Shown here one piece after another: positions 1 through 62,385 of a DNA stretch of 64,000 nt. Source of the stretch: an uncultured Candidatus Saccharibacteria bacterium (GTDB taxonomy: Bacteria > Patescibacteriota > Doudnabacteria > UBA920); the NCBI GenBank assembly GCA_964556325.1, contig CAZKVS010000002.1, forward strand, positions 13,599 through 77,598. The letters are read 5' to 3'. The position numbers and the translations under genes were made by a program. How positions within the stretch are numbered: position 1 is the stretch's first letter; each line of letters begins with the position of its first letter. Below the pieces are notes generated by a model, which saw nothing but the letters and a program-made list of their open reading frames with translations, ran no database searches and was not told the DNA's origin.

Positions 1-3000
1 CTTTATTTGCACCAAGTCTTCTCGGCCTAAGTACTCATAACCCAACACTCGGAACACGTAGTCCAGTATGGACGTAGACATTTTAATGTTGTCATGTCCC
101 TGCACCGGCCCCGCTGGTTCAAACCGAGTAAAGGTAAAGGTGTCTACGTACTCTTGCAAACTTACTCCGCGCTGCAAACCTTTGGACACCGCAATGGCAA
201 AACAGTTAAGCAAGGAACGGTACGCAGCCCCGTCTTTATACATGTCTATAAATACTTCACCCACCCGACCATCTTCATACTCACCGGTACGCACGTATAC
301 TTTATGCCCACCGACTATTGCTTCCTGCGTCCAACCGCGGCGCTTAGTAGGCAAGCTTTCTTTTATTCCACGAGCAAGCGCGTGAGAGTGCACGGCTTCT
401 GGAGTGACTTCGTTTATGTCGTCTGGGTCTGCACCTAAGAGCGAAGCAAAGTCTGCGGTTGTGTTGGAGTTCAGCGGCTGGGAGAGTTTGGACCCATCCC
501 GGTACAAGGCCACCGCCTTCAACATAACCTTCCAAGAGTCCCAGTAGACTTTCTTTACCTCGTCTATGTTGGCCTCTGCCGGCATGTTTATAGTTTTGGA
601 AATAGCGCCAGAAATAAACGGCTGCACCGCGGCCATCATTTTCACGTGCGCGTCATAGGCAATGTATCGCTTGCCTTTGGTCCCACACTTGTTAGCGCAG
701 TCAAAAATAGCATAGTGTTCTTCCTTTAAGTACGGCGCGCCTTCAATAGTCATAGTCCCGGCTACGTACTCGTTCGCTGCTTGCACATGGTCAACAGTAA
801 AGCCGAGCGCACCCAGCACATCAAAGTTGGCTTCTTTCACATATTGGGCCAAACCAATACGATTCATTACCTCTTCACCCAAAGTCAGCGGGTTAAGCAC
901 AAAGCGAATATCAAAAGCAGAACCGAGTTTGGTTTCAACAAGCGCTAAGTCAGCGTCGGTAAACCCTTTCGCTTTCAAAGTCTCATGGTTAACAAACGGA
1001 GCGCCAACCAAAGTTCCATGCCCACGGGTATAGCTCTCTATCTCCGTAACCTGTTCTTCACTGTAGCCTAAACGCTTAAGTGCTTTTGGCACGCTGCTAT
1101 TTACAATTTTAAAGTATCCCCCACCGGCCAACTTTTTGAACTTTACCATGGCGAAGTCCGGCTCTACGCCGGTCGTGTCACAGTCCATAACCAACCCGAT
1201 AGTTCCGGTCGGCGCAATAACCGTTACCTGAGCGTTACGATACCCGTGCTTCTCGCCTCGCTCTAAGGCTTCATCCCAGACACCTCGAGCTGCTTGCACT
1301 AAGTATTCCGGAGCATGTTCGGCAGCAATACCTACCGGTAAAATAGTTAAACCTTCGTATTCTTTAGCCGTAGCGTTATACGCAGCACGACGATGGTTGC
1401 GAATAACTCGTAACATGTGCTCCTTATTCGCATCGTACCGGGCAAATGCGCCTAAGTGTTCCGCCATTTCTGCGCTTGTCGCATAACTCTCCCCGCACAT
1501 AATAGAACTAATACACCCGGCAATGCTCCTGGCTTCATCCGAGTCGTACGGTACACCCATGGTCATGAGTATAGTGCCCAAGTTGGCGTAGCCCAAACCC
1601 AAGGTTCGGAAAATGTAAGACAATTGAGCTATTTCTTGTCCCGGAAACTGGGCCATGAGCACGGAAATTTCTAACACAATAGTCCAAAGCCGGGTTGCAT
1701 GCTTAAAGCCGGCGACGTCAAACTGTCCGGTTTCTGCATTGTAAAAATGAGCCAAGTTTATGGAAGCCAAGTTACAGGCGGTGTTATCCAAAAACATGTA
1801 TTCACTGCATGGGTTAGAACCATTAATGCGACCATCTTCGGGACAGGTGTGCCACTCATTAATGGTGGTATCAAACTGCAAACCCGGATCGGCACAGGCC
1901 CACGCCGCGTAGCCAATTTGGTCCCATAATTGTCGAGCTTTAATCGTCCTCGCCACCGCGCCGGAAGTACGCCAGGTTAAATCCCAGTTCCGGTCATGAC
2001 TTACCGCTTCCATGTACTCGTTAGTCACTCGAATAGAGTTGTTGGAGTTCTGACCGGATACGGTATTATATGCTTCGCTTTCAAAATGCGTGTTAAATGT
2101 CGGAAAGTCCAATTTGTCATAACCCTGGTCAACCAACGCCAACGCTCGGACTATGTAGCTCATGGGCACCTGGAACGAAAGAGCTGTCTTAATAGCCTTA
2201 CGCAACTTTTCGTTCGTGTGATAATCGGTCGTCTTCTCAGCCGTGGCAATAGCCATAATGTCGTTCAAGTGCTGAGAGTTGATGGTACTACCGGTAACTA
2301 GATCGGCAACTTTTTGCTCCTCTAATACTTTCCAGTTAATAAACTCTTCTACATCCGGATGATCGGCATTTACTACCACCATTTTAGCGGCGCGACGAGT
2401 AGTACCGCCGGACTGGATAGCGCCTGCGGAACGGTCAAAAATACGCAACCAAGACATCATACCGGAAGTCTTACCCCCACCGGTTAACGGTTCGCCTTTC
2501 GCACGCAACGTAGAAAAGTTACCACCAGTACCGGAGCCGTATTTAAACAAGCGGGCTTCGCGCGTAATGGCGTCAAAAATACCGCCCGGGTTCACCAAGT
2601 CATCGTTTACCTTTTGGATAAAACAGGCGTGTGGCTGTGGATGAGTATACGCATCTTCAGACAATTTAGTCACTCCGGTTGCCGGATCCACATAGTAGTG
2701 GCCCTGAGGTTGCCCGGTAATGCCGTACGCCCAATTTAAACCGGTGTTAAACCACTGCGGACTGTTGGGTGCGCCCATTTGTGTAATGAGCATGAACTCC
2801 ATTTCATCTTGGAATGCCTGCGCATCTTCTGCTGACGCAAAATACCCATGTTCCTCACCCCAAAACCGCCAAGTCCCCGCCAATCTCCGTACCACCTGCC
2901 GACTGCTTTTCTCACTTCCCGTCACAGGCTTGCCGTCTGAGTCAAACACCGGTTTCCCCTGCTCATCCACCTGAGGCACCCCGGCTTTTCGGAAATATTT

Positions 3001-3233
3001 TTGAGCCAAAATGTCCGTTGCTACCTGGCTCCAGGTGACCGGAACTTCAACATCTTTTATTTCCTTTACAATGGAGCCGTCGGGGTTGCGAATAACCGAA
3101 CTGCGCTTTTCATACACCAATTGTGCCAGAGGATCTACGCCGGCCTGGGTGTAAACACGGGGTATTTTCAGACCTGAGCCCTTTTTTGCTTTAACTGCAG
3201 GAGTGGTTTGTTCTTGGGTGAGTGTTTCAGACA
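1..3233 (-). CDS. nrdJ: Adenosylcobalamin-dependent (class II) ribonucleoside-diphosphate reductase, N-terminal about 1077 aa; the C-terminus runs off the window start
   Basis: Own translation of the minus strand from ATG at 3233 gives one long reading frame to position 1. It contains the class II RNR signature '[23 protein letters not shown]'. It was not in the ORF track because no stop lies in the window. nrdR sits immediately upstream. Confidence 0.85.
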
Positions 3234-3277
3234 TAGGGGTGTAATTTATTTTTAGCTGGTATTCGAAAAACAAAAAA

Positions 3278-6603: not shown

Positions 6604-7044
6604 TTATTTTAGTGTTTCTTTAAGTACTTTTGAAAGCACGGCCCCGTCTGCAGAGGCGCCAAACTTTTCCTTCAATGCTTTCATTGCTAAGCCAAACTCT
6701 TTTGCCGTCCAACCGTTAGCAACGCTCAATTCTTGCACTGCAGCCGTAATCTCTTGCTCACTCACCTGTGCCGGTAAAAATTCAAGCAACACCTCTGCTT
6801 CCGCTTTTTCTGCCGCCGCAAGCTCTACCCTATTCCCCTTTATAAATTCACCTTCCGCTTCCTTGCGACGTTTATATTCAGACTGTATAACCGCCAAGAC
6901 GGCCGCTTCGGAAAGGTCCGAACCGGCCGCAATGCGTTCATTCTTTAATCGCGATAACAACATACGCAAAGTTCGAGAGGTAACTTCATCTCTCGCTTTT
7001 AAAGCGACACTCACTCGTTGCTCTAAATCTTGTATGGAAACCAT
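6604..7044 (-). CDS. yqeY: GatB/YqeY domain protein
   Basis: Similarity to the YqeY family ('RMLLSRLKNERIAAG'). The rpsU-yqeY pairing is conserved. Start taken at MVSIQ. Confidence 0.75.
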   Translation of the reverse strand: MVSIQDLEQRVSVALKARDEVTSRTLRMLLSRLKNERIAAGSDLSEAAVLAVIQSEYKRRKEAEGEFIKGNRVELAAAEKAEAEVLLEFLPAQVSEQEITAAVQELSVANGWTAKEFGLAMKALKEKFGASADGAVLSKVLKETLK

Positions 7045-7107
7045 GCGTATTTGTTTTATATGCCAGACTAGACTGTAGCCCAACAAAAATTTTTGATAAA
7101 TAAACTA

Positions 7108-7353
7108 CTATCGGGACTTGAACTGAGTCGTATGTCGAGTAATGGGCTTACCGAGTTTTTTCAGTTCTTCGCGAAGCTCTCGGAGTTCAGAACGTCGCCG
7201 AGCAGCTACCCGTTGCAGGTTACGGCTCTTGCCCGGTTCAAAAAACCGAGTTTTGCGAGCGCGCACTAAAATACCGCTTTGTTGAATTTTGCGGTTAAAA
7301 CGTCGGAGTAAACTTTCAAATGACTCGTTGTCTTTACGTTTAACTTCTACCAA
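7108..7353 (-). CDS. rpsU: 30S ribosomal protein S21 (TTG start, C-terminal basic extension)
   Basis: 'MVEVKRKDNESFESLLRRFNRK...ARKTRFFEPG' S21 signature. GAGGTGA Shine-Dalgarno 6 nt upstream of a TTG start. Confidence 0.85.
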   Translation of the reverse strand: MVEVKRKDNESFESLLRRFNRKIQQSGILVRARKTRFFEPGKSRNLQRVAARRRSELRELREELKKLGKPITRHTTQFKSR

Positions 7354-7598
7354 TTCTGCTCACCTCTCTCTCTAATAGATATCTTTTCGTGCTTGATCAA
7401 GCAAAATATGCTTTAAAACAGCACAATAAGTAGGGTAACTGTACCATAACTAAGCCGGCTTGGTCAAACAGCCGCAACCCATCCTAATCCTTAACCCGCC
7501 TTGACTCGTCGGCGAGGCAGGTCTTTTATCCTGGAGCAGAACCCCCAGCAAATAAAAGAATAGCAACCAGGATGCAACCACCGAAGGTTAACCATAGA

Positions 7599-7940
7599 CT
7601 ACTCCGCCAACTCCATACCACCGAGTACGTGCAAATGAAGATGCGGTACAATCATTCTGCCATTTTTGCCTACGTTATACGATAAGCGATACCCCGTCTG
7701 CTCCACTCCCAACTGCTTAGCTACCCGCTGGGCAGTCAATACCATTTTTCCCACCAACATTTGATCTGCATCCGTTAAATCCACAACAGAAGGAATATGC
7801 TTCCTCGTAATGACCAAAACATGCACGGGTGCCTTAGGCAAAATATCTTGTATGGCCAATACGTCGTCATCTTCAAAATAAACTTTCGCCGGAACCGTAT
7901 GTGTGGCGATATTGCAAAATACGCAGTCGTCGTTATCCAT
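7599..7940 (-). CDS. HIT-family (histidine triad) nucleotide hydrolase
   Basis: 'HLHLHVLGG' histidine-triad motif. Start taken at MDNDDCVFCNI; the ORF track starts at 7973. Confidence 0.8.
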   Translation of the reverse strand: MDNDDCVFCNIATHTVPAKVYFEDDDVLAIQDILPKAPVHVLVITRKHIPSVVDLTDADQMLVGKMVLTAQRVAKQLGVEQTGYRLSYNVGKNGRMIVPHLHLHVLGGMELAE

Positions 7941-8028
7941 ATTCGTAGCTTCATGAGCTTCAAAAGCTTGCAAGCTTCCAAAGCTGTGTTAAATCTTAAA
8001 GCTTGGGAAGCTGTAGAAGCTCCAGAAG

Positions 8029-9309
8029 CTATCTCCCTAGTCTCTTTCTTACTTCATCTACAATTTTATCATAGCTAAAGACCTCTTGCATCCCGCTTTT
8101 TACATCCCGCAAGATTACCACCTCATCAACTGCCTCTTTCTGGCCCATTATGAGCGCCACAGGACTCCCCGCCTCTTGAGCTGCTTTAAGCTGATTTTTC
8201 ACACCCACATATCCAAAATAATCAAACACAGTCATACCTCCCTCAACTAAGTCACGGAACAATCGGAGTGACCGTTTGGCAGCCAGCTCACCGAGTGGCA
8301 CCAAATATACTTCTGCAGGCCGCTTAGGAGTTGCCTTTGCCACTGCCCCTCGCTCCATAAGCGCTTGATGCAGCTGGAGAAAACTGCCGTGTAACCCAAA
8401 AGCATGAACGTTTTTACCCCCTAATTTTTGGACCAAATTAGTATGACCTTCTGCTTGCGCAACGACTAAGGCGCGCCCATCCAATTTTAACTTCAATACC
8501 GCAATTGTCCCGCTCGCACCTTCCATCCCAGCCAATAACGGGTTCAACTGATAAGGAATTTGTAGTTCTTCAAGGGCTTCGAGTAAATTAGTAAAGTGCT
8601 TACGGGAAGATTCATCTAAGAAATCTAAAATAGTAGGCGCCTCACTCAACAAAGACTGGCAGTCCAAATTCTGACACCTCAGTACCGCCAAAGGATGTTC
8701 TTGTAGGTTATCTGCGCAGGTATCACAAAGCTGATATCGTTTCCCTTTCAAAAAATCCCGCAAAGCTGCTCCATAGGTTTCTTGGCACGATTCATTTCCG
8801 CAGGTATTCACTTCAAAGGCCACATCACTGAGACCAATTGAACTAAATAATTGCCAGGCTGCCCCTAATACTTGCGCTTCGGTCAGGTGATTGTAGCTTC
8901 CCCAGACTTCCAAACCAAACTCATAGTCGGCAGCGAGTTGTTTTTGTCCGTCTTGTATTACCGTGCCGCTATAAACCCATTTGGTAAGTTTAGGATCCTG
9001 GGTACGAACTTGAGAGAGCAAACGCAACATAGAGGGTAGCAGACTCGAACGAAAGGCGACTTGCCGACCCGCTGCTTCACCCACCACTAAATTTTTAACT
9101 CGAGCATCTTCCGTAGCGTATACATGTTGATACAAGAGCGGATCTTCTGCTACTGGTAGCTCCAGTCGAGTAAAACCGTATTGGCTCGCGTAGCGGTCAA
9201 AATTCTCAAGTAAGGTCTGCCAGGCACTGTCTGCACTGGTGATGATGTCAAATATTCCTGGTAAGTTAGCAGCTTTACGACTCGATTGGGTGGCTATTTT
9301 TTTATCCAT
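8029..9309 (-). CDS. hisS: Histidyl-tRNA synthetase-like protein (HisS/HisZ family) with degenerate catalytic motifs and a Cys-rich insertion
   Basis: N-terminal HisRS-family similarity and a C-terminal HisRS-type anticodon-binding domain ('VYLVPLG...ALIMGQKE...VILRDVKSG'). Motif 2 (FRYER/GRYREF) and motif 3 (GGRYD) are not recognisable. Insert with CGNESC...CDTC...CQNLDC. Start at MDKK (9309). Confidence 0.65.
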   Translation of the reverse strand: MDKKIATQSSRKAANLPGIFDIITSADSAWQTLLENFDRYASQYGFTRLELPVAEDPLLYQHVYATEDARVKNLVVGEAAGRQVAFRSSLLPSMLRLLSQVRTQDPKLTKWVYSGTVIQDGQKQLAADYEFGLEVWGSYNHLTEAQVLGAAWQLFSSIGLSDVAFEVNTCGNESCQETYGAALRDFLKGKRYQLCDTCADNLQEHPLAVLRCQNLDCQSLLSEAPTILDFLDESSRKHFTNLLEALEELQIPYQLNPLLAGMEGASGTIAVLKLKLDGRALVVAQAEGHTNLVQKLGGKNVHAFGLHGSFLQLHQALMERGAVAKATPKRPAEVYLVPLGELAAKRSLRLFRDLVEGGMTVFDYFGYVGVKNQLKAAQEAGSPVALIMGQKEAVDEVVILRDVKSGMQEVFSYDKIVDEVRKRLGR

Positions 9310-11983: not shown

Positions 11984-12113
11984 CTCTTAAGCTCAAACCT
12001 CAACCCCTTAAGTATCTTGCCTAAATTCCCAATACCCAATTCTCAATTTCCAATGAAATGCTAAATTCTGGAAGTTAGAAATTGGAAATTGGTAATTGGA
12101 AATTTATTCTACT

Positions 12114-13535
12114 ATGTCTATCCCCATCGTCGCTATCGTCGGACCTCCAAACGCCGGCAAATCTACGTTATTTAATAAAATTATTGGCGAGATGAAAGCT
12201 GTCACTTCTGACGTAGCTGGTACAACTCGAGACCGCCAGTACGCCCCTACTGCTTGGAACGGGAGTGTCTTTGAACTTGTAGACACGGCGGGGTTGGATT
12301 CCCCCTCCACCCCATCTTCTAAAGGAGTACACTCTTCTTCCGCTGCTTTCAAAGGCGGAGCCAGGGGTGGTGAAAGCGAACTTGAAACGTCAGTCAACAA
12401 ACAAATAGACGTGGCCGCAAAAGAAGCACAGGTAATTGTTATGGTAGTGGATGGTAAGCTATCACCTGACAGCTTAGACCGGCAGGTGCTACTTAAATTT
12501 AGAAAATCCAAACAACCGGTAGTGTTGGCTATCAACAAACTCGACTCCCCTAAAAATTTAGAGGCTCTGACCGCAAGCTTCCTAAAACTAGGTTTAAAGG
12601 CCGTGTTCCCCGTTTCGTCAGTTACTGGCCGCGGCATTGGGGACATGCTCGACCATATTGTTTCCGTCCTCCCTGCAGCAAAACTAGACCCTAATCCCTT
12701 AGCACTTAGCCCTTCTACTGGCATTGCCGTGGCAATAGTTGGAAAGCCAAATGTGGGCAAGTCCAGCATTTTTAATCAAATCCTCAAAGACGAACGGGTC
12801 GTTGTGTCCAACGTACCGGGCACCACTCGCACTGCTATTGATAGCGAAATGACTATCAATGGTACCGACTACACGTTTATCGACACTGCGGGTCTCAAAA
12901 AGAAAGCCGCCAGACAAGCCCAACCAGACGTGTTCTCGAGCTACCAAACCTATAAATCTATCCGCCGAAGCGATGTCTGTTTCTTTGTTATCGACGCTAC
13001 TGAGGAAGTAACCAGCCAAGACCAATCCGTAGCCCAAGAAATTATTTCCCAAGAAAAAGGTTGTATTGTCTTAGTGAATAAAGTGGACCTGTACGACGCA
13101 GGGCAACAAAAAAAGAAAACCGTTGCCCTTCCTACCCGAGACAAACTCCAAGCCTACGTTTCCCACCACTTCCCTTTCCTCTGGATGTGCCCTGTATTCT
13201 TTGTATCCGGCAAAACAGGTGAAGGACTCAGCGAAGCTATCGCCGCTATTAACAAAATAGACGCCAGTCGAAAACAAGTCGTCGACCCTGAAGCGCTCAA
13301 AGATCTCCTTGCCCGACGAAAGAAACAAAACCCACCCAAGCGACTTATGGACCAAAAAGAGCCAAAGGTTTATAGTCTTGCCCAAGTGGAAACCAATCCG
13401 CCCAAGTTTGAACTCTTGGTTAACCATACGCCGGCCATTCAGGAGAACTTCCGGAAATCTGTAGAAAACGCCATCATCAAAGAACTCAACTTTTGGGGTA
13501 CTCCGATAAAAGTCCGACTTGTAAAGAAAGTGTAA
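12114..13535 (+). CDS. der: Ribosome-biogenesis GTPase Der/EngA (two GTPase domains plus KH)
   Basis: Two P-loops (GPPNAGKST and GKPNVGKSS), DTAGL motifs, C-terminal KH-like domain. Carries in-frame repeat-derived inserts (see findings). Confidence 0.9.
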   Translation: MSIPIVAIVGPPNAGKSTLFNKIIGEMKAVTSDVAGTTRDRQYAPTAWNGSVFELVDTAGLDSPSTPSSKGVHSSSAAFKGGARGGESELETSVNKQIDVAAKEAQVIVMVVDGKLSPDSLDRQVLLKFRKSKQPVVLAINKLDSPKNLEALTASFLKLGLKAVFPVSSVTGRGIGDMLDHIVSVLPAAKLDPNPLALSPSTGIAVAIVGKPNVGKSSIFNQILKDERVVVSNVPGTTRTAIDSEMTINGTDYTFIDTAGLKKKAARQAQPDVFSSYQTYKSIRRSDVCFFVIDATEEVTSQDQSVAQEIISQEKGCIVLVNKVDLYDAGQQKKKTVALPTRDKLQAYVSHHFPFLWMCPVFFVSGKTGEGLSEAIAAINKIDASRKQVVDPEALKDLLARRKKQNPPKRLMDQKEPKVYSLAQVETNPPKFELLVNHTPAIQENFRKSVENAIIKELNFWGTPIKVRLVKKV

Positions 13536-15547: not shown

Positions 15548-15596
15548 ATCATATGGGTCCTATCTGACCTATCTGACCTATCTGACCTATCTGACC
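15548..15596 (+). repeat. Tandem 9-bp repeat (CCTATCTGA) x about 4.5 upstream of the CapA-like gene
   Basis: Direct reading: gtCCTATCTGACCTATCTGACCTATCTGACCTATCTGAcctataaa, followed by a TATAAA -10-like box. Confidence 0.9.
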
Positions 15597-15623
15597 TATA
15601 AATTTTATTCCCTTATAGCAAAA

Positions 15624-16835
15624 ATGTCCCACAAACTTCTGCACCTTCTGTTTATTTTAATAATTGCGCTAACAATTACCAGCACAATAACTTTTGCGTT
15701 GCGCGACAAAAACCCGGAACGCCAGTCCGCTGACTCCAGCAAAACCCTAGACGATTACTTCACCCAAAGTCAAAGCCTCAAAAAAAATACCCTCACGGAA
15801 CAAGAAACCCATACCGTCACGCTCTTGGCAGTCGGCGATATTTCCTTATCTCGGAACATTGCCCAAACTATTAAAATAAAACAAGACCCGCTCTACCCAT
15901 TTCGAGGCATAGAGCCACTTTTACAGTCGACCGATTTCAACTTTGGCAACCTGGAAACCCCTTTTTCCAAGAGCGACGCCTTTACTCCAAATAACACCTT
16001 AGTCTTTAATGCCCCCAAAGCAAATGTGGCAGGTCTAAAAGCGTACAATTTTAAAGTTTTAAATCTGGCCAACAATCATGCTTTTGACCAAGGACTAAGC
16101 GGAGTACTTACCACTCGCAAAATCCTAGCAGACAACAATATACTTTTTACCGGCAGTGGTGAATCCTTAGATGAAGCATGGATGCCCGCTGTATATGAAA
16201 CAAACGGAATTAAGATAGGTTTCATTGGAGCCTCTTACTCCTCTATAAACGACGGAGGTAAAACCACCAACAACTACGTCGCCCGCATCGAAGACCTAGA
16301 CCGTCTCACGGCTCAAGTCTCATTTCTCAAGTCTCAAGCTGACTTCATAGTGGTCACCATGCACGCAGGAACTGAATACACCGCCACACCAAATGAAGCC
16401 CAAATCAAATTTGCTCACGCAGCCGTTGATGCGGGTGCCGATATAGTCATAGGCGCGCACCCCCACTGGGTACAGGAAAAAGAACTATACTGCCCCATTT
16501 CCGGTTCCTCCCCTTTCAAAGGGGAGGTTAGGTGGGATGAACATTCGCAGAATTCGGATGCTCATCCGTTGCATTCGGATTGTAAATGGATCTACTACTC
16601 ATTGGGCAACTTTATCTTCGACCAATCCTGGAGTGAACAAACCAAGAAGGGTTTAGCCCTTAAAATTACTCTTTCCAAAACGGGTACAAACTCACCCACG
16701 CTCAGCGGCGCCGCAACCCTCAATGACCTGCAACCCGCCGGCGGCAAGGAGAGACCTGAAACAAATCTAGATATTATCGAAGAAATCCCCATTTATATTA
16801 AAGGCAACTGCTGTCCAATAATTGCACCAAAATAA
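15624..16835 (+). CDS. CapA-family metallophosphatase (poly-gamma-glutamate synthesis-like), membrane-anchored, with an in-frame repeat insertion
   Basis: 'LLAVGD', 'NLANNHAFD', 'TMHAGTEY', 'GAHPHWVQ', 'YSLGNFIFD' CapA motifs. About 35 extra residues lie between HPHWVQ and YSLGNF, encoded by palindromic repeat DNA at 16495-16590. Confidence 0.7.
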   Translation: MSHKLLHLLFILIIALTITSTITFALRDKNPERQSADSSKTLDDYFTQSQSLKKNTLTEQETHTVTLLAVGDISLSRNIAQTIKIKQDPLYPFRGIEPLLQSTDFNFGNLETPFSKSDAFTPNNTLVFNAPKANVAGLKAYNFKVLNLANNHAFDQGLSGVLTTRKILADNNILFTGSGESLDEAWMPAVYETNGIKIGFIGASYSSINDGGKTTNNYVARIEDLDRLTAQVSFLKSQADFIVVTMHAGTEYTATPNEAQIKFAHAAVDAGADIVIGAHPHWVQEKELYCPISGSSPFKGEVRWDEHSQNSDAHPLHSDCKWIYYSLGNFIFDQSWSEQTKKGLALKITLSKTGTNSPTLSGAATLNDLQPAGGKERPETNLDIIEEIPIYIKGNCCPIIAPK

Positions 16836-17081: not shown

Positions 17082-17249
17082 AATCTAGCAGAGATACTAT
17101 CATTTGACAAGATGCATACTTCATGGTTAAAATTGCCATTGTAACTCAACTAGTCGTTAGTAAATAGTAATTAGTAATCAGAAAATACTAATTTAATTCT
17201 TTACTGATTGCTTATTACTCCTTACTAAATTACTAATTATTCGTAGTTC

Positions 17250-17288: not shown

Positions 17289-19664
17289 ATGGCAAAGCCA
17301 TTAATAATAGTAGAGTCGCCTACCAAGGCGAAAACCATCAGCAAATTCCTCGCCGGCAAGTACGACGTTGAGGCGTCTTTTGGACATATCCGAGACTTAC
17401 CGAAAAGCAAAATTTCTATAGATGTTGAACACGATTTTGAACCGAAATACATCATCCCACCAAAAGCCTTAGAAACGGTCGCAAAGCTTAAAGCCCTCGC
17501 CAAGCATGCACCGGAAATCATCCTGGCGAGTGATGAGGACCGCGAAGGGGAATCCATTGCCTGGCACCTGGTCCAAGCTCTAGACTTAGATGAAAGCAAG
17601 CCGAAAAAGAAAGTTCGCCCAGATGATTCTAAAACAGACGAAGTGAAGGTGGATACAGACCGAGTCAAACGGATTGTTTTTCACGAAATTACCAAAACCG
17701 CCATTGATGAGGCGCTCGCCCACCCACGCTCCATAGACCAACGCATGGTAGACGCACAGCAAGCCAGGCGCGTGCTAGACAGGCTGGTAGGCTATGAACT
17801 TTCACCATTCTTGTGGCGTAAAATCCGCTACGGCCTTTCGGCCGGGCGTGTCCAGAGCGTAGCAGTACGACTAGTGGTTGAACGAGAACGAGAAATTCAA
17901 GTATTTGATAAAGAAGAATACTGGAGTATAGAAGCAAAGCTCTCTAAGCTCACCTCTTTTTCCCCCCTTCATGAGGGGGGGCTAGGGGGGGTATTTGTGG
18001 GCAGACTCTCTAAAATACACGACAAGTCGGTAGGTAAAATGGATATTAACTCCAAAACCGGTGCAGAGACTATTGTTGCAGACTTGAACGGTGCAGAGTA
18101 TATAGTTACAGATATTCAGAAAAAAGAGGTTAAGCGAAACCCTGCCGCTCCATTTACCACTTCTACACTGCAGCAAGAAGCAGCTCGCAAGCTTGGATTC
18201 TCTGCCAAGCAGACCATGATGATTGCCCAACAGTTGTACGAACATGGACACATTACCTATATGCGTACTGATAGCTTAAACTTAGCTGCAAGCGCTCTCA
18301 AGCAGGCTCAGGAGGTTATTGCAACTGAGTTCGGCAAACAATACGGCCTTGATACTCCTCGGCACTACACTAACAAATCCAAAGGCGCCCAAGAGGCACA
18401 CGAAGCTATTCGCCCCACAGACTTATCTCTCCTCCCTCAGAACTTCAAAGCGGGAGTTGCTGATAAAGGCCATGGTCGATTATATGATTTAATTTGGAAA
18501 CGCACCATTGCATCTCAAATGCAGCATGCTATATTCGACCAAACATCCGTGGACATTAGCGCTAAACACTATACATTTCGCGCTAATGGCCAAGTGGTGA
18601 AGTTTGATGGGTTCATACGCGCCTACACCGAAGGACAGGACGAGAAAGCAGAAGATGAAATTGAAGGCGTACTGCCCGAACTTTCTGCGGAAGAAAAGCT
18701 TAAACTACACGAGCTCCTCCCCCTGCAGCACTTTACTGAACCTCCGCCACGCTACACAGACGCCACCCTGGTGAAAGCTTTGGAAGCGAACGGTATTGGC
18801 CGGCCTTCTACGTACGCCCCTACTCTGGCCACCATCCAAGAACGAGACTATGTAACCAAAGAAGACAAGAAATACTCCCCCACTGAAGTTGGCTACTTAG
18901 TGAACGACATGCTGGTCGCAAACTTTCCGGAAATTGTGGACATCAACTTTACCGCCAAGGTAGAAGAAGACTTTGATAAAATCGCCGAAGGCGAAGAAGA
19001 CTGGGTAAAAGTTATCCGCGACTTCTATACTCCCTTCAAAAAACACTTGAACGAAAAAGAGGCAACGGTAGAAAAACAAGTAGAAACTTCTACTACTCCC
19101 TGCCCTCATTGCAGTAAAATGATGCTGATCAAGTTCGGCCGCATGGGTAAGTTCCTTGCCTGCCCTGACCCTGAGTCAAAAGTAACCATGCCGCTCCCTG
19201 AAGAAGCTGCCAAAATTGCTGAGCTAGAAGCAAAAACAGTTGGCGAAATTTGTCCTATATGCAGCAAACCCATGGAAGTTAAGCGCGGCCGCTTTGGTTA
19301 TTTTCTTGGGTGCGTAGACTACCCCAAGTGTAAAGGTATTGCTAAAATATGGAATAAAACTGGCTTTAAATGCCCGTCCTGTCTTGCATCCGATAGCCGT
19401 AAAGACAAACCGGGTGACGTAGTCGAAAAGAAATCCCGTGGCCGCGGTAAACCCTTCTTCGCCTGCACCCGCTGGCCAGACTGCGAATTTATTGCCAACC
19501 TAAAACCGGAGAGTGAGGCCCATCTCCAAGAACTTTATAAAATCTGGTTAGAAAATAAGGATAAGCCAAAAACCGGCAAAAAGTTTGCTCGTAAAACCGC
19601 AACTAAGAAGTCAACTAAAAAAACTACGAAAACATCCGCTGCAGAAAAAACCGTCGAGGCCTAG
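17289..19664 (+). CDS. topA: DNA topoisomerase I
   Basis: TOPRIM N-terminus 'LIIVESPTKAKTISKFL', active-site region, C-terminal C4 zinc ribbons (CPHC...CP, CPIC, CPSC) and a Lys-rich tail. 791 aa. Confidence 0.95.
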   Translation: MAKPLIIVESPTKAKTISKFLAGKYDVEASFGHIRDLPKSKISIDVEHDFEPKYIIPPKALETVAKLKALAKHAPEIILASDEDREGESIAWHLVQALDLDESKPKKKVRPDDSKTDEVKVDTDRVKRIVFHEITKTAIDEALAHPRSIDQRMVDAQQARRVLDRLVGYELSPFLWRKIRYGLSAGRVQSVAVRLVVEREREIQVFDKEEYWSIEAKLSKLTSFSPLHEGGLGGVFVGRLSKIHDKSVGKMDINSKTGAETIVADLNGAEYIVTDIQKKEVKRNPAAPFTTSTLQQEAARKLGFSAKQTMMIAQQLYEHGHITYMRTDSLNLAASALKQAQEVIATEFGKQYGLDTPRHYTNKSKGAQEAHEAIRPTDLSLLPQNFKAGVADKGHGRLYDLIWKRTIASQMQHAIFDQTSVDISAKHYTFRANGQVVKFDGFIRAYTEGQDEKAEDEIEGVLPELSAEEKLKLHELLPLQHFTEPPPRYTDATLVKALEANGIGRPSTYAPTLATIQERDYVTKEDKKYSPTEVGYLVNDMLVANFPEIVDINFTAKVEEDFDKIAEGEEDWVKVIRDFYTPFKKHLNEKEATVEKQVETSTTPCPHCSKMMLIKFGRMGKFLACPDPESKVTMPLPEEAAKIAELEAKTVGEICPICSKPMEVKRGRFGYFLGCVDYPKCKGIAKIWNKTGFKCPSCLASDSRKDKPGDVVEKKSRGRGKPFFACTRWPDCEFIANLKPESEAHLQELYKIWLENKDKPKTGKKFARKTATKKSTKKTTKTSAAEKTVEA

Positions 19665-19678: not shown

Positions 19679-19830
19679 GTATATCACACGCATTGCCCCC
19701 GCGTCCTATTAGTCCTATCTGTCGTATCGGTCCTATCTGTCGTATGCATCCAATTAGTCCTATGTGGGCACCAAACCCACAAAAGAATCAACACACCTAC
19801 CCGCCTCCTACACTCATTCGTCACTAATGA

Positions 19831-34831: not shown

Positions 34832-34920
34832 ATTTCCAATTCCTAATTTCTAATGTCTAATGACACACAAGAAATTAGTACTCTTATCATTTGGTATTAG
34901 AAATTAGATATTAGATATTT

Positions 34921-41561: not shown

Positions 41562-41813
41562 AGGAAAGTGGATAGTGACTAGTGGACAGTGACTAGTATA
41601 CAAACCTGTACACTGTTCACTGGTAACTGTCTACTGTTACTTATACTAACGTACACCTTAGCATAAAAATGACAAAGATTCAAGACTCTAGAAAATTATT
41701 CATGAAAACTTAATATAAATAAAAAAAGACGAGCACACCTGCACTCGTCACCAGTAAACTGGATTTTCAAAGAGCTTACTAGACTGAGGATTACCCAGCC
41801 AGGTTATTAACTG

Positions 41814-42433: not shown

Positions 42434-42781
42434 AAAACTTTCCTCTCAAGTTGCGAACATTGTGGTTTGACTAGTCGCCTGACTAGCCCCGGCTGTAGGC
42501 CGAACTTGGAAATTATCTCCCCTGCGTTGCAGGGGCGGTGGGTGTGTTCGTTTGCTTTGACCCTGAAAGGCCAAAGGCAATCACACCTAAAAGCAACACC
42601 AAAACCACGACCAATATTTTCATATCTTGTCCGCAAAATCGGCCAAATCCATGACCGACGACGTTTTCTTGCAAGTACAAGAAAGGCTATGAAAGTTCTT
42701 TGCTGTTCATAAACCCTCCTTGTAGGCTTAAAAAGGCAACAGACAAAACCACCGCGGGGGTGGTTTTTGTTTGCTATAATT

Positions 42782-44941
42782 ATGGCACAAATGGCCGAAT
42801 TAAAGCAACAAATTACTCACTTCCCCCACCAGCCTGGATGCTACCTGTTTCGGGACGCCACGGGCTTAGTTTTGTACGTGGGCAAAGCCAAAGACTTGCG
42901 GAAACGAGTCAGCCAGTACTTTGGACAGGACAAACGACCGCAGCTACCGTTCTTAATCGAGGACGCCTCAGACATAGACTATATAGTAGCCCGTACTGAG
43001 CTTGAAGCACTGTTTCTAGAAAACACGCTCATTAAAAAACACAACCCGAAGTACAACATAAAGCTTAAGGACGATAAAAACTACGCGTTCATTGCCATAG
43101 ACTACTCCACTCAAATTCCTCAAATTGGGTATGTACGGAAAATTACTGACGCATCCGACTTTACCCCGTTTGTAAACCCATCCGCTTCTTGGGGCAGTGG
43201 CAAGCATGAGCGTAAGACGCTCAAGTGGAAAGGGAAAAGTGGAAAGGGAAAAGTGGATTCCAAATCTTCAGGTCTACAACCTACAACCTACAACCTACAA
43301 CCTAGTTCTTACTTTGGTCCGTATTCATCAGTTAAAAAAATTCGGGAGACGCTCGACTTCGTACGAAAAATATTTCCCTACTGTGCTAACACGGAAGTAA
43401 GTGGTCGGCCTTGTTTTTACTATCACTTACACCGCTGTCCCGGCGTATGCGTGGGTGCGGTTTCTTTGGAGGAATACCAAAAAAGTTTGGCTCGCATTAA
43501 ACTCTTTCTCAACGGCAAAACAACAGAGATTAAAAAAGAGCTTAAAACGAGCATGGAGTATGCAGCGGAAACCAAACGATTTGAGTTGGCCGCGCGACTG
43601 CGCGACCAGCTGCGCGCACTTGAGTTACTAGACGAGCGACAAATTGCCCAGTTCCCCACCAGAGTAGACTACGACTTTATTTCCCTCGCTACGCAAAACC
43701 ATTTGCGGTGCGTCAACCTGTTTAAAGTGCGCGGCGGCAAACTGACCGACAAAGAAAACTTTATATACACCGCTCCTACGGATTTAAAACTAGAAGCTAG
43801 CAGCTGGAAGCTAGAAGCTATTATTCAGACCTTTGCGGAAACCTACTACGCAGAAACCACAGATTTACCCAGCGCAGTTTTTACCCAACACCCACTCACA
43901 GATACCCCATTAATAGATGAACTCCTCAAACATCGGAAAGGTAAAAGGGTTACCCTCTCTGTTCCCCGCCGTGGGAAGGCACACCAACTTATTAAACTTG
44001 GCCAGGTAAATGCTGAAGAATGTTTACGCAAAACCCTCGCCACAGACGCGACTGATTCTGATAAAATCCAAGATTCCCTAGAGAAGCTACAGAAGCTTTT
44101 GAAGCTTGCCCAGCTGCCCCGACGGATTGAGTGCTATGACATGTCTAACACCCAAGGCACTAACCCTGTAGGCAGCATGGTTGTTTTTATAGATGGCAAA
44201 CCCGCTAAAGGTGAATACCGTAAATTTAAGATTCGCTCCAAAGACACCCCCGACGACTTTGCTATGATGCGTGAGACGTTATCCAGACGGCTCCGCCGTC
44301 TGAACCCTCCCCCTCTTGAGGGGGAGATGGAGGGGGTCATAGTGAAAGATAAAAATGGTAAAGACATCAAAGAACCAAATCATTCTATGACCTCCCCTAA
44401 CCCCTCCTCAAGAGGAGGGGAACAAATGCCATGGCCGCGACCCGACTTAATAGTAATAGACGGAGGTAAAGGCCAGCTCTCTGCTGCGCTCGAAGCGCAG
44501 GAACAAGTCGAAGGTCATCAAGTCGAAAGTCAAAAGTCGAAAATCCGAGATGATAACCCAGATGGCACCCTGCCCCCTAACCCCTTAGCCCTTAGCCCTA
44601 TCCCAATGATTGGATTAGCAAAAAGGATCGAAGAAATATTTCTCCCCCACAATCCCGAACCAATTGTGCTGAGTCATGACCACCCTTCTCTCCAACTTCT
44701 CCAACGTTTACGTGACGAGGCACATCGCTTTGGCATAACCTTCCACCGCAGCCTCCGTAGTAAGCAAGCCACCAAATCCGCACTCGACACTATTCCGGGC
44801 ATTGGCCCTAAAACAAAAAAACTCCTAAAACAGAAGTTTGGCACAGTAAGTGCGATTAAGAAAATCGCACTAGAAGAAATAGAAAAGTTAGAAGAATTAG
44901 TAGGCAAAACTAAAGCCGGTATTATAAAAAAGAATTTGTAG
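42782..44941 (+). CDS. uvrC: Excinuclease ABC subunit C, expanded (723 aa) by several in-frame repeat-derived insertions
   Basis: GIY-YIG N-terminus ('GCYLFRDATGLVLYVGKAKDLRKRVSQYF'), UvrBC-interaction region, RNase H-like endonuclease ('IDGGKGQL', 'GLAKRIEEIF'), C-terminal HhH. ATG at 42782 preferred over the TTG at 42767. Confidence 0.9.
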   Translation: MAQMAELKQQITHFPHQPGCYLFRDATGLVLYVGKAKDLRKRVSQYFGQDKRPQLPFLIEDASDIDYIVARTELEALFLENTLIKKHNPKYNIKLKDDKNYAFIAIDYSTQIPQIGYVRKITDASDFTPFVNPSASWGSGKHERKTLKWKGKSGKGKVDSKSSGLQPTTYNLQPSSYFGPYSSVKKIRETLDFVRKIFPYCANTEVSGRPCFYYHLHRCPGVCVGAVSLEEYQKSLARIKLFLNGKTTEIKKELKTSMEYAAETKRFELAARLRDQLRALELLDERQIAQFPTRVDYDFISLATQNHLRCVNLFKVRGGKLTDKENFIYTAPTDLKLEASSWKLEAIIQTFAETYYAETTDLPSAVFTQHPLTDTPLIDELLKHRKGKRVTLSVPRRGKAHQLIKLGQVNAEECLRKTLATDATDSDKIQDSLEKLQKLLKLAQLPRRIECYDMSNTQGTNPVGSMVVFIDGKPAKGEYRKFKIRSKDTPDDFAMMRETLSRRLRRLNPPPLEGEMEGVIVKDKNGKDIKEPNHSMTSPNPSSRGGEQMPWPRPDLIVIDGGKGQLSAALEAQEQVEGHQVESQKSKIRDDNPDGTLPPNPLALSPIPMIGLAKRIEEIFLPHNPEPIVLSHDHPSLQLLQRLRDEAHRFGITFHRSLRSKQATKSALDTIPGIGPKTKKLLKQKFGTVSAIKKIALEEIEKLEELVGKTKAGIIKKNL

Positions 44942-53002: not shown

Positions 53003-53980
53003 ATGAACAAAGAAACTATAGTAGGCGGCATACGAGCCACTAGCAAGCTCCATATTGGTAACTACCTGGGCGCACTTAAGCCATTTGTTGAGCTCTCCAA
53101 AGATAGAGAGAAGACGAGCTTCTTTTTCATTGCTGACCTGCACGCCCTCACCACTCCTTTCGAACCACACGAGCTAAGACAGAACTCAGTAGAAGTAGCA
53201 GCCGAATATATTGCAGCTGGTTTGGATGTAAATAACGCTGTTTTTTTTCTGCAAAATCACGTCCACGAACATGCCGAACTTGCCTGGATATTCAACTGCA
53301 TACTACCAATTGCCGAACTAGAACGGATGACTCAGTACAAAGACAAATCAAACCAACATAAAGACAATATCAATGCAGGTCTACTCACCTATCCTTGTTT
53401 AATGGCTGCAGATATTCTTGTATATAAAGCTCAAGGAGTCGCAGTAGGACACGATCAAGTACAGCATGTGGAACTATCAAGAATAGTCGCAAGAAAGTTT
53501 AATAACCGATTTGCGAATGTGTTCCCAGAGCCAAAAACGTACTCCTCCGATCCGCTGCGTATTATGAGCATCAAAGATCCGAGCAAGAAGATGAGCAAGA
53601 CGGGAGATGTTCCATTGTATATAGACGATGAGCCAAAAATAATTCATGAAAAGATAAAAAAAGCAGTCACCGCAACGGATGGTGCGGGAAAGTCAGCAGG
53701 GGCAGAAAATCTTTTAGGCTTACTTGCACACTTTGGCAGTCATGCCAATATTGAACACTTCAATGACATGCAGCAAACGGGCACGCTTAAGTTTAGCGAG
53801 CTGAAAGAAGCCTTGGCCACAGACATAGCTGAGCACTTTGCAGAGTTTCGAGAAAAGAAAAAAGAGCTTCTTGCTCGACCGGAATACCTAGCCGAAGTGT
53901 TGGGGGAAGGTGCCCGCAAAGCTCGAGAAGTTGCCCACGAAACGCTACGCGAAGTAAAAGAAAAAATTGGACTGCTATAG
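53003..53980 (+). CDS. trpS: Tryptophanyl-tRNA synthetase
   Basis: 'HIGNYLGAL' HIGH-type motif, 'KMSKT' KMSKS-type motif, 325 aa class Ic size. Confidence 0.9.
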   Translation: MNKETIVGGIRATSKLHIGNYLGALKPFVELSKDREKTSFFFIADLHALTTPFEPHELRQNSVEVAAEYIAAGLDVNNAVFFLQNHVHEHAELAWIFNCILPIAELERMTQYKDKSNQHKDNINAGLLTYPCLMAADILVYKAQGVAVGHDQVQHVELSRIVARKFNNRFANVFPEPKTYSSDPLRIMSIKDPSKKMSKTGDVPLYIDDEPKIIHEKIKKAVTATDGAGKSAGAENLLGLLAHFGSHANIEHFNDMQQTGTLKFSELKEALATDIAEHFAEFREKKKELLARPEYLAEVLGEGARKAREVAHETLREVKEKIGLL

Positions 53981-54047
53981 GATAGAAGAGCAAGAAGAAA
54001 TAGAAGAATTAGAAGAGCCAGCATACATAATTGATACATACACTATT

Positions 54048-54416
54048 ATGTACGAAAGTGGAAACTTTCAATCATATAAGGATTTAATTGTTTGGCAGAA
54101 ATCTTTAAAGCTAACGCACCTGGTTTATAACATAACCAAACGATTACCTAAAAGCGAGCTGTTTGGATTGGTTTCGCAAATGCAACGATCGGCAGTTTCC
54201 ATACCTTCTAATATCGCCGAAGGCTACGATAGAAACAATCCTGGAGAATTTAGACAATTTCTCGGAATCGCTTACGGATCCAGCGCAGAACTAGAGACTC
54301 AATTAATTCTCTGTACAGGAGAATACCCACACATCAGTTATACCGAAGCCACTGAAAGACTTGACGAAGTTAGGAAGATGTTAAAATGCTTAATCCTAAA
54401 ACACAAAAACCGGTAA
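54048..54416 (+). CDS. Four-helix-bundle protein (TIGR02436-like; 'S23 ribosomal protein / 23S rRNA intervening-sequence protein' family)
   Basis: 'LIVWQKSLKLTHLVYNITKRLPKSELFGLVSQMQRSAVSIPSNIAEGY' is highly characteristic. Start at MYESG rather than the track's 53967. Confidence 0.65.
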   Translation: MYESGNFQSYKDLIVWQKSLKLTHLVYNITKRLPKSELFGLVSQMQRSAVSIPSNIAEGYDRNNPGEFRQFLGIAYGSSAELETQLILCTGEYPHISYTEATERLDEVRKMLKCLILKHKNR

Positions 54417-60716: not shown

Positions 60717-60790
60717 TTGATCAAAATTAAGTAAAATTGACCATAATTGTCCATAATTTAAATGGCAATTTTGAACAATTTTGAACAATT
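60717..60790 (+). repeat. AT-rich intergenic repeat R1 (TTGAYCAWAATT word family) upstream of ssb
   Basis: TTGATCAAAATT...TTGACCATAATTGTCCATAATTT...CAATTTTGAACAATT. Related to R2 and R3. Confidence 0.8.
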
Positions 60791-61280: not shown

Positions 61281-61366
61281 TTGACCAAAATTAAATAAAA
61301 TTGTACACAATTGTCCATAATTTAGAATGGCAATTTTGAACAATTATGGTCAATTCTGATCAATTT
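61281..61366 (+). repeat. AT-rich 86-bp repeat R2 with 12-bp terminal inverted repeats (TTGACCAAAATT ... AATTATGGTCAA) upstream of rpsR
   Basis: Nearly identical to R3 over about 85 nt. Confidence 0.85.
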
Positions 61367-61622: not shown

Positions 61623-61707
61623 TTGACCAAAATTAAATAAAATTGTACACAATTGTCCATAATTTAGAATGGCAATTTTGAACAATTATGGTCAATTCTG
61701 ATCAATT
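61623..61707 (+). repeat. AT-rich repeat R3 (copy of R2) upstream of efp
   Basis: Identical to R2 from TTGACCAAAATT through ...CAATTCTGATCAATT. Confidence 0.85.
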
Positions 61708-61721
61708 ATGTAAATTGATTT

Positions 61722-62334: not shown

Positions 62335-62352
62335 CAGTCTTTTCTCTTCTCC

Positions 62353-62382
62353 CTCCCCTTTCTAAGGGGAGGCTAGGTGGGG
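62353..62382 (+). repeat. Intergenic copy of the GC-rich palindromic element (CTCCCCTTTCTAAGGGGAG plus GCTAGGTGGGG)
   Basis: Same architecture as the in-frame copies at 16507, 17961, 44307 and 42517. Confidence 0.8.
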
Positions 62383-62385
62383 TGA

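Follow-up and report, generated by a model that had tools for sequence, protein, structure and literature searches.

The stretch of DNA analysed here, 64,000 nucleotides of a Doudnabacteria contig (CAZKVS010000002.1; hereafter the window), contains several copies of a short GC-rich repeat that lie mostly in frame inside conserved genes and that appear to belong to the BoxC/PIT/TM class of elements (PIT, potential intrastrand triplex). The best protein matches place the contig in a genome of Candidatus Doudnabacteria (Patescibacteria). The host genes, all on the plus strand, encode a CapA-like (PGA_cap) protein (15624-16835), TopA (17289-19664), UvrC (42767-44941), in which four hypervariable insertion hot spots can be distinguished, and Der, also called EngA (12096-13535, the likely start being the ATG at 12114). 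From 5' to 3', a module of the repeat consists of a pyrimidine arm, a loop of 3 to 5 nucleotides, a complementary purine arm, a linker (mostly 3 nucleotides, usually YTA) and a second purine-rich arm. The unit is 30-35 nt long and is found singly or as inverted pairs, the latter forming composites of about 75-120 nt.

Five copies in the window follow this architecture strictly. The module in the capA-like gene (16507-16539, plus strand) is made of the C-arm CCTCCCCTT (16507-16515), the loop TCA, the G-arm AAGGGGAGG (16519-16527), the linker TTA and the third strand GGTGGGATG (16531-16539). The topA module (17962-17992, plus strand) reads CCCCCCT / TCATG / AGGGGGG / GCTA / GGGGGGGT. Two modules lie in uvrC, the left one at 44307-44337 on the plus strand (CTCCCCCT / CTTG / AGGGGGAG / ATG / GAGGGGGT) and the right one inverted at 44390-44420 (CCCCTCCT / CTTG / AGGAGGGG / TTA / GGGGAGGT, read on the minus strand). 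The fifth module is intergenic (62352-62384, plus strand; CCTCCCCTT / TCT / AAGGGGAGG / CTA / GGTGGGGTG) and stands directly 3' of the efp terminator hairpin, ahead of a convergent gene. An earlier note on this DNA had proposed a repeat family of at least five copies with a common architecture, and these five, at the capA, topA, uvrC and efp-downstream sites that it named, bear it out. Its two separate uvrC copies are both genuine modules, but they form a single 114-nt composite (44307-44420) whose third strands point inward (..GGTCATAG / CTATGACC..) on either side of a spacer of about 52 nt. Two further copies on its list fared less well. The one in der (12300-12375, plus strand) is a degenerate composite, with a reverse third-strand-like CCCCCTCCACCCC, weak hairpins and then GGGGTGGTGAA, yet it lies within a genuine 63-nt insertion. 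The intergenic one at 42517-42546 (plus strand) has a GC hairpin, CCCCTGC / GTT / GCAGGGG, and then CGGTGGGTGTG; its arm is not homopurine, its tail is no mirror of the arm and breaks the family rule, and our family scan missed it, so we regard its membership as doubtful. Nor are the surroundings AT-rich, as had been stated: the GC content of the window is 43-50%.

The copies are far more numerous than chance would produce. The pattern CTCCCC-N5-10-GGGGAG has 3 matches in the window and 0 in 100 shuffles, and a 31-nt consensus has 2 matches where 0 are expected. A structure-based scan for a C-rich/G-rich hairpin followed by a G-rich tail returned the 5 strict copies per 64 kb, against 1 in total over 20 first-order Markov simulations (about 0.05 expected). 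Four of these five lie in coding DNA, as do most copies of the clade. In close relatives, 15 copies were counted over about 106 kb, whereas more distant loci of the Candidate Phyla Radiation (CPR), about 1 Mb in all, yielded roughly 5 that are convincing. At the gathering threshold, Rfam reported only tRNAs over the window, and it gave no family covering the motif in eight motif-bearing loci (E <= 1).

Describing the element as a palindrome plus a G-box, as had been done before, leaves its anatomy incomplete. In an alignment of 21 modules (A6), the 3' G-block is the mirror image of the hairpin G-arm, which it copies neither directly nor in inverted form. G-arms of the types GGGGAGG, GGAGGGG, GGGGGAG and GGGGGGG are followed by the tails GG[T/A]GGGG, GGGG[A/T]GG, GAGGGGG and GGGGGGG, respectively; across these four arm types, the non-G base of the tail sits at the mirror position of the A of the G-arm, and A:T pairs next to the loop are answered by T or A at the tail's 3' end. 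What links arm and tail is the code of antiparallel purine-motif triplexes (G*G:C, A*A:T, T*A:T). Since the Doudnabacteria arms are asymmetric, covariation brings this mirroring into plain view: it is evolution that records how the third strand follows the purine arm.

Over the 167 positions of 20 distinct clade modules, the code is obeyed 148 times, versus 133 under a direct-repeat model, and when tails were permuted among modules the observed score was reached in 6 of 5000 trials. Among the A positions, 33 of 42 face A or T, compared with 25% A/T overall, while pairing within the hairpin holds in 92.9% of cells, and 10 double changes are seen. Scores of the five window copies are 7/9, 7/7, 8/8, 8/9 and 8/8. 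In the ITxF class II definition (Holder 2015, PMC4666352), a pyrimidine stem of 6-15 nt, a loop of 1-6 nt, a purine stem and a second loop of 1-6 nt precede a third stem, which is antiparallel to the purine stem and follows G*G:C, A*A:T and T*A:T with at most about 1 mismatch. The strict window copies show this block layout (stems of 7-9 nt, first and second loops of 3-5 nt each), together with the third-strand code and the over-representation. In the der composite, about 7 of 10 positions fit the code by hand count; its fold is no better than that of shuffles, whereas the uvrC composite folds with z = -3.6, a value that concerns the hairpin part, the only one foldable in silico. An alternative hairpin, in which the C-arm would pair with the tail, was ruled out because the tail mirrors the G-arm instead of copying it directly.

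All copies contain four G-runs, such as GGGG-A-GG-CTA-GG-T-GGGG in the window and GGGG-A-GGG-TTA-GGG-T-GGGG in cyanobacteria, and a G-quadruplex (G4) made by G-arm and tail, with the C-arm forming a competing hairpin in a kind of hairpin/G4 switch, could be proposed on this ground. The topA copy, which has two G7 runs, and the cyanobacterial relatives fit the G4 criterion of four runs of at least three G separated by short loops; the other window copies have only GG mid-runs, and most would be limited to two-tetrad G4s. A quadruplex has no need for the non-G of the tail to mirror the A of the arm, nor for the 3' T/A to match the A:T pair at the loop end. Moreover, the related E. coli element TMECO forms a stable triplex in vitro, as seen by circular dichroism and nuclear magnetic resonance (PMC4666352). 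We consider a quadruplex element improbable.

The module extends well beyond Doudnabacteria. We gathered a cross-phylum set, with one genome per species, on a single fixed hairpin, CCTCCCCTT-N3-5-AAGGGGAGG, the capA/efp type. Among the matches listed, this hairpin occurs in Nostoc and other cyanobacteria, Nitrospirota, Bacteroidota, alpha-, gamma- and deltaproteobacteria, Planctomycetes, Leptospiraceae, Omnitrophica and Patescibacteria. Among these same matches, a perfect third strand, GGWGGGGWW, follows 80 of 129 hairpins, and at least 8 of its 9 positions agree in 103 of 129 (random windows: 0.16% and 0.9%, respectively); hardly any base other than T or A occurs at positions 3 and 8. Viral contigs have the full 9/9 third strand in 55 of 74 hairpins. 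Several IMG/VR contigs (L213/L218, L226, L237/L267 and others) carry at least 3-5 copies per 15-20 kb, all on a single strand and with near-identical third strands (GGGAGGGGTTAAG); no phage association was reported for TMECO (Holder et al. 2015, PMC4666352). Copies in frame were also found in ruvB of Uhrbacteria, in an HMGL-like gene of Brevundimonas and in a gammaproteobacterial class II ribonucleotide reductase (RNR) gene (L156), where the triplex motif falls between the barrel and the TSCPD domain. In a deltaproteobacterial metagenome-assembled genome, as in the window, a copy is located downstream of efp; we treat this coincidence as chance because the two EF-P proteins are only 29% identical. 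The efp, uvrC and comEC genes are adjacent in that genome, and its efp-uvrC intergenic region (L135, 1400-1760) is dense with diverse C-tract/G-tract hairpins, including the CCTCCCCTT hairpin.

The coding copies keep the frame of their host genes and add Gly/Pro/Ser-rich peptides where some orthologs have none. This suggestion of the earlier note was upheld for TopA, UvrC, Der and CapA by comparison with orthologs or solved structures. Two points that it had proposed to check came out as it expected: presence varies among close relatives, which is the case for the topA, der and uvrC copies, and inserts occupy loop-type sites, which here are variable loops, coil or low-confidence regions (CapA, UvrC) or gaps relative to solved TopA, UvrC and Bacillus subtilis EngA. 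Insertion in frame at fold-compatible sites, a trait of Rickettsia palindromic elements (RPEs), is thus shared by the window elements. A module offers from 2 to 5 stop-free frames out of 6.

In capA, the module encodes SSPFKGEVRWD and has orthologous copies in L081, L082 and L207; in one related genome, the gene contains a further copy at another place. The entire Cys-bounded loop is absent from P0133, P0135, P0139, P0141, P0146 and P0200. L208 and L210 have kept a pairing-competent hairpin and a tail at the site with different arm sequences. In an AlphaFold model, the insert is a coil with a pLDDT of 55-67. The capA gene of L209 (4565-5863) has a hairpin, CCTCCCCCTT...AAGGGGGAGG, with a 34-nt insertion in its loop, which suggests a nested insertion into the element.

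The topA module encodes SPLHEGGLGGV, a segment that aligns with a gap in solved TopA. L082 has the element unchanged over 40 nt; it is present as a variant in L209 and is absent from L081 and L210 (net -27 nt, the window TopA having 9 more residues). This distribution is at odds with the protein tree, so that either precise losses or repeated gains are needed. In L208 (topA at 6835-9300), the same TopA loop contains another palindrome, GTAGGGGC..GCCGCCCG-loop-GCGGGCGGC..GCCCCTAC, whose GTAG...CTAC ends are like those of GTAG-tagged REPs.

UvrC residues 513-555, the bulk of which is encoded by the composite, have no counterpart in the solved UvrC C-terminal domains (T. maritima, Bacillus), and residues 514-525 and 535-554 have a pLDDT below 50 (AlphaFold). 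The palindrome insert is common to P0006/L083 (69% identity) and P0007 (73%) and is absent from the closest relatives, P0002-P0004, and from L084; in P0002-P0004, other repeat-derived peptides fill that place. L083 has a paralogous composite at a second uvrC site, and L119, from the same assembly, has two composites of about 117 nt with homologous spacers inside atpG (ATP synthase gamma). More generally, UvrC ranges from 590 to 808 aa in Doudnabacteria because its four fixed hot spots, all of low confidence in the model, hold different repeat-derived peptides in each genome (23 orthologs, alignment A1). Finally, Der has a net insertion of 63 nt (21 codons) directly after the DTAGL (G3 / switch II) motif; L082 lacks it, and nothing in B. 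subtilis EngA corresponds to residues 68-91.

Could these inserts be ordinary lineage-specific loops, selected as peptides, with DNA similarity as a by-product? The encoded peptides are similar (SP..GE/GG..) and located in loops, as this would have it. However, the same DNA turns up between genes and within unrelated ones, in either orientation and in more than one frame, as well as in distant phyla and viral contigs, and its third codon positions are conserved (see below). The intergenic and antisense copies contradict this explanation, to which we give hardly any credence.

The insertions in frame and their presence/absence pattern also match the behaviour of RPEs and of intragenic REPs (PMC10969869, PMC3733652), and inverted doublets with a conserved spacer resemble REPINs; doublets of this type, with a short spacer, are found at uvrC 44307-44420, at the second uvrC site of L083 and twice in atpG of L119. 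The element might then be a plain selfish palindromic mini-transposon, akin to RPEs, MITEs (transposable elements of the miniature inverted-repeat type) or REPINs, its G-block serving as the recognition end for a transposase and its triplex-like symmetry being incidental. No end-recognition model, however, predicts the mirror relation between arm and tail, including the correspondence of A to A/T, over four arm types and across phyla. Moreover, no GTAG or CGTC tag was seen at the hairpin foot in alignment A6, where the conserved YTAG is the internal linker. As expected of MITEs, inverted ends are present in the composites; at the topA and der junctions we saw no duplication, the flanks there being too diverged for the ends of the insertion and any target duplication to be defined. 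We found no parent insertion sequence among the 30 window ORFs scanned with Pfam and the Pfam-annotated genes of L081-L083 and L207-L209, nor any transposase in these roughly 170 kb. A mini-transposon of this kind seems to us decidedly unlikely.

Third codon positions give a measure of constraint that is independent of the peptide. Comparing the capA element with those of L081, L082 and L207 (57% protein identity), 11 of 11 third positions are identical in each case. The count is 12 of 12 for the topA element against L082 and 11 of 12 for each of the left and right uvrC modules against L083, while the spacer of the uvrC composite has 12 of 17. The elements proper are thus 92-100% identical at these positions, compared with 40-56% in the rest of the host genes, which is saturation. 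Such near-complete identity in saturated genes implies either a constraint on the nucleic-acid sequence or conversion between copies, and peptide selection cannot explain it. We infer that a force acting on DNA, be it selection or inter-copy conversion, keeps the sequence able to form the hairpin and triplex. The notion of a passively tolerated selfish repeat, held by the earlier note, is difficult to reconcile with these figures.

It is this conservation that makes host function a serious rival. The elements would be beneficial in cis, slowing replication or transcription locally, marking sites of repair or recombination, or forming an mRNA hairpin that affects translation or stability. The capA hairpin, which stays pairing-competent with other arm sequences in L208 and L210, and the viral contigs that carry multiple copies on a single strand are in line with such a role. 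On the other hand, the sites are dispensable, since topA, der and uvrC copies are missing in close relatives; host genes and positions are mutually unrelated; no promoter, terminator or polymerase effect was found in vivo in functional tests of PIT/TM elements (PMC4666352); and conversion between copies could mimic selection. Overall, a function for the host is possible, though we would not expect it.

We think it probable that the window elements are dispersed repeats of the triplex class, residing in frame in permissive loops, spread through a step involving single-stranded DNA and kept by a force at the DNA level. In their relevant form, a single DNA strand would fold into a hairpin clamped by the antiparallel third arm through G*G:C, A*A:T and T*A:T contacts. 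Purine-motif triplexes have been reported in DNA and are said not to form in RNA (PMC4666352), and for this reason we favour a single-stranded DNA form and a spread as non-autonomous DNA by way of it. Candidate routes would be an enzyme of the HUH/RAYT type, or template switching where the structure stalls a fork. In a genome that is about 90% coding, the surviving insertions would be those with a length that is a multiple of three, a stop-free frame and a permissive loop as target, after which selection or inter-copy conversion would maintain the folding sequence. No RAYT (Y1 HUH) was detected among the scanned window ORFs or the annotated genes of L081-L083 and L207-L209, with about 15-20% of one genome covered, and the genes between paired copies in L135 and L163 are only housekeeping genes according to Pfam.

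Several points weigh against this reading. It draws on a 64-kb window, about 15-20% of one genome, and about 110 kb from relatives, in which no transposase was seen. The triplex folding of the Doudnabacteria elements is deduced from their sequence, and G-arm plus tail also fits a two- or three-tetrad G-quadruplex. The direct-repeat model scores high as well (133/167), from G-richness alone, the permutation P-value of about 0.001 is modest given that copies are related by descent, and the cross-phylum set was chosen on one fixed hairpin sequence. In E. coli, no protection from dimethyl sulfate was seen in vivo (Holder et al. 2015, PMC4666352). We found no clean empty/filled junction and no terminal repeat with target duplication, and the patchy topA pattern could reflect precise loss instead of insertion. 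Lastly, a host function would account for the strong conservation among orthologous copies no less well than selfishness would.

The window is rich in other repeats. Tandem heptanucleotide arrays (period 7, 3-5 copies) abound, both in intergenic regions (12024-12104, 17157-17239, 34843-34919, 41567-41638) and in frame within uvrC (43223-43304, 43790-43820, 44503-44542) and capA (16303-16338). For instance, CTACAAC x4.4 encodes LQPTTYNLQP, and CTAGAAG-type heptamers encode KLEASSWKLEA. They resemble the cyanobacterial STRR heptamers and are the source of other UvrC hot-spot peptides in relatives. An array of the CCCTTAG type (CCCTAAYCCCTTAGCMCTTAGCCCT) gives the same peptide, PNPLALSP, in two unrelated proteins (der 12690-12715 and uvrC 44576-44600); in Der, this segment replaces an equally long linker of L082. 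A perfect 9-nt tandem repeat, CCTATCTGA x4.6, lies directly upstream of the capA-like gene (15559-15599), and a related 9-mer array follows topA (19703-19763). Units of 10 and 20 nt (CAATTATGAT; ATGGCAATTCTGAACAATT) recur intergenically around ssb and efp (60735-60790, 61299-61365, 61641-61710) and are possibly a common regulatory site.

Two other genes of the window deserve mention. A gene for a four-helix bundle like those of 23S rRNA intervening sequences and bAvd is located after trpS or tyrS, in the window (53967-54416) and in L206 (5003-5212); as called, it has 149 aa in the window and 69 aa in a sample with an identical RNase J protein. We considered a link between this kind of gene (window 53967-54416, L083) and the repeat, and dropped it: in 120 cross-phylum loci, an iterated profile detected no such gene close to the motif. 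At the edge of the window (1-3273, minus strand) lies a class II RNR, over 1091 aa in length, whose C-terminal part is a TSCPD domain. Its residues 314-379, inside the barrel, weakly match TACO1/YebC_N and are possibly another insertion.

BoxC/PIT/TM elements have been known for about 25 years. To the question of their origin, spread and function the window brings evidence from evolution, of unusual clarity, for the importance of the third strand: synonymous sites in intragenic orthologous copies serve as an internal neutral ruler, which the elements clearly beat. It also illustrates how, in a CPR genome that is tiny and dense with genes, repeats are pushed into coding sequence and make loops of core enzymes hypervariable. 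As a caution for annotation, differences in length and low-complexity segments rich in Gly and Pro in CPR housekeeping proteins can stem from repeats. A bolder view of the arm/third-strand covariation and the near-absolute conservation at synonymous sites, on which we would not wager much, is that triplexes form in cells and are selected, and that the copies in topA, uvrC, der, atpG, ruvB and RNR are functional DNA devices spread by a single-stranded DNA mobilisation system common to many phyla and their phages. If so, copies embedded in genes might act as programmed pause sites for forks or transcription, or as recombination and indel hot spots that remodel protein loops.

How do these elements compare with known repeats? 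BoxC of E. coli was later described as PIT elements (Hoyne & Maher 2000) and then as TM, an element without known transposase or function (PMC4666352). TM occurs in hundreds of proteobacterial genomes and is abundant in Enterobacteria, G/C-rich triplex motifs being also plentiful in cyanobacteria; it is frequently found in inverted pairs and is tied to local genome variability (PMC4666352). The window elements share with this class a C-rich arm, a loop of 3-6 nt, a G-rich arm, a second loop of 3 nt (often TTA) and a second G-arm obeying the code, in a unit of about 33-37 nt present in many copies per genome, in inverted pairs, variably among relatives and with no known transposase. Because the G-box mirrors the G-arm as the triplex code prescribes, we would place the Doudnabacteria elements in the BoxC/PIT/TM intrastrand-triplex class and not among RPEs. 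They differ from TMECO, whose consensus is CCCTCNCCC-N3-6-GGGNGAGGG-N3(TTA or CCG)-GGGNGAGGG (PMC4666352), in having CCTCCCCTT, CCCCCCT, CTCCCCCT or CCCCTCCT in place of CCCTCNCCC and in the asymmetry of their arms; the TMECO consensus has 0 matches in the window and occurs in only 3 of 269 loci retrieved. The host, too, is different, and while TMECO is described as 'always intergenic' in E. coli K-12, which is a description and not a formal criterion (PMC4666352), most copies in the sampled clade are in frame in conserved genes.

RPEs (Ogata et al. 2000, 2002) are a known parallel for the behaviour in frame (PMC10969869), as are intragenic REPs, in that they too are repeats inserted in unrelated housekeeping genes of a small-genome bacterium, with peptides in fold-compatible loops. 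That part of the earlier note's RPE-like reading, dispersal in frame with presence/absence differences, stands; the kind of element does not, in view of the mirror third arm and the many phyla that point to BoxC/PIT/TM. By description, RPEs measure about 100-150 bp, are confined to Rickettsia and have no described mirror arm of the triplex type, in contrast to a unit of 30-35 nt (75-120 nt for composites) recurring in many phyla. REPs and REPINs (Bertels & Rainey 2011; PMC3733652) are likewise short GC-rich hairpins, single or in inverted doublets. Now and then they lie inside genes, in particular uvrA/B/C, recBCD, other DNA-repair genes and those for polymerases, and there account for 20-30 residues of the protein (Di Nocera et al. 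2013, PMC3733652); the Doudnabacteria element has a mirror third arm in addition. H-DNA and H*-DNA share the reverse-Hoogsteen purine-motif code and the mirror symmetry. However, H-DNA forms from duplex mirror repeats under supercoiling, whereas here all three strands (Y-R-R) are contained within one strand, so that single-stranded DNA would be needed. Relative to these systems, what appears to be new is a CPR host for intrastrand-triplex repeats, their routine residence in frame in housekeeping genes (including atpG, ruvB and RNR in other genomes) and the near-complete synonymous-site identity inside elements of otherwise saturated host genes.

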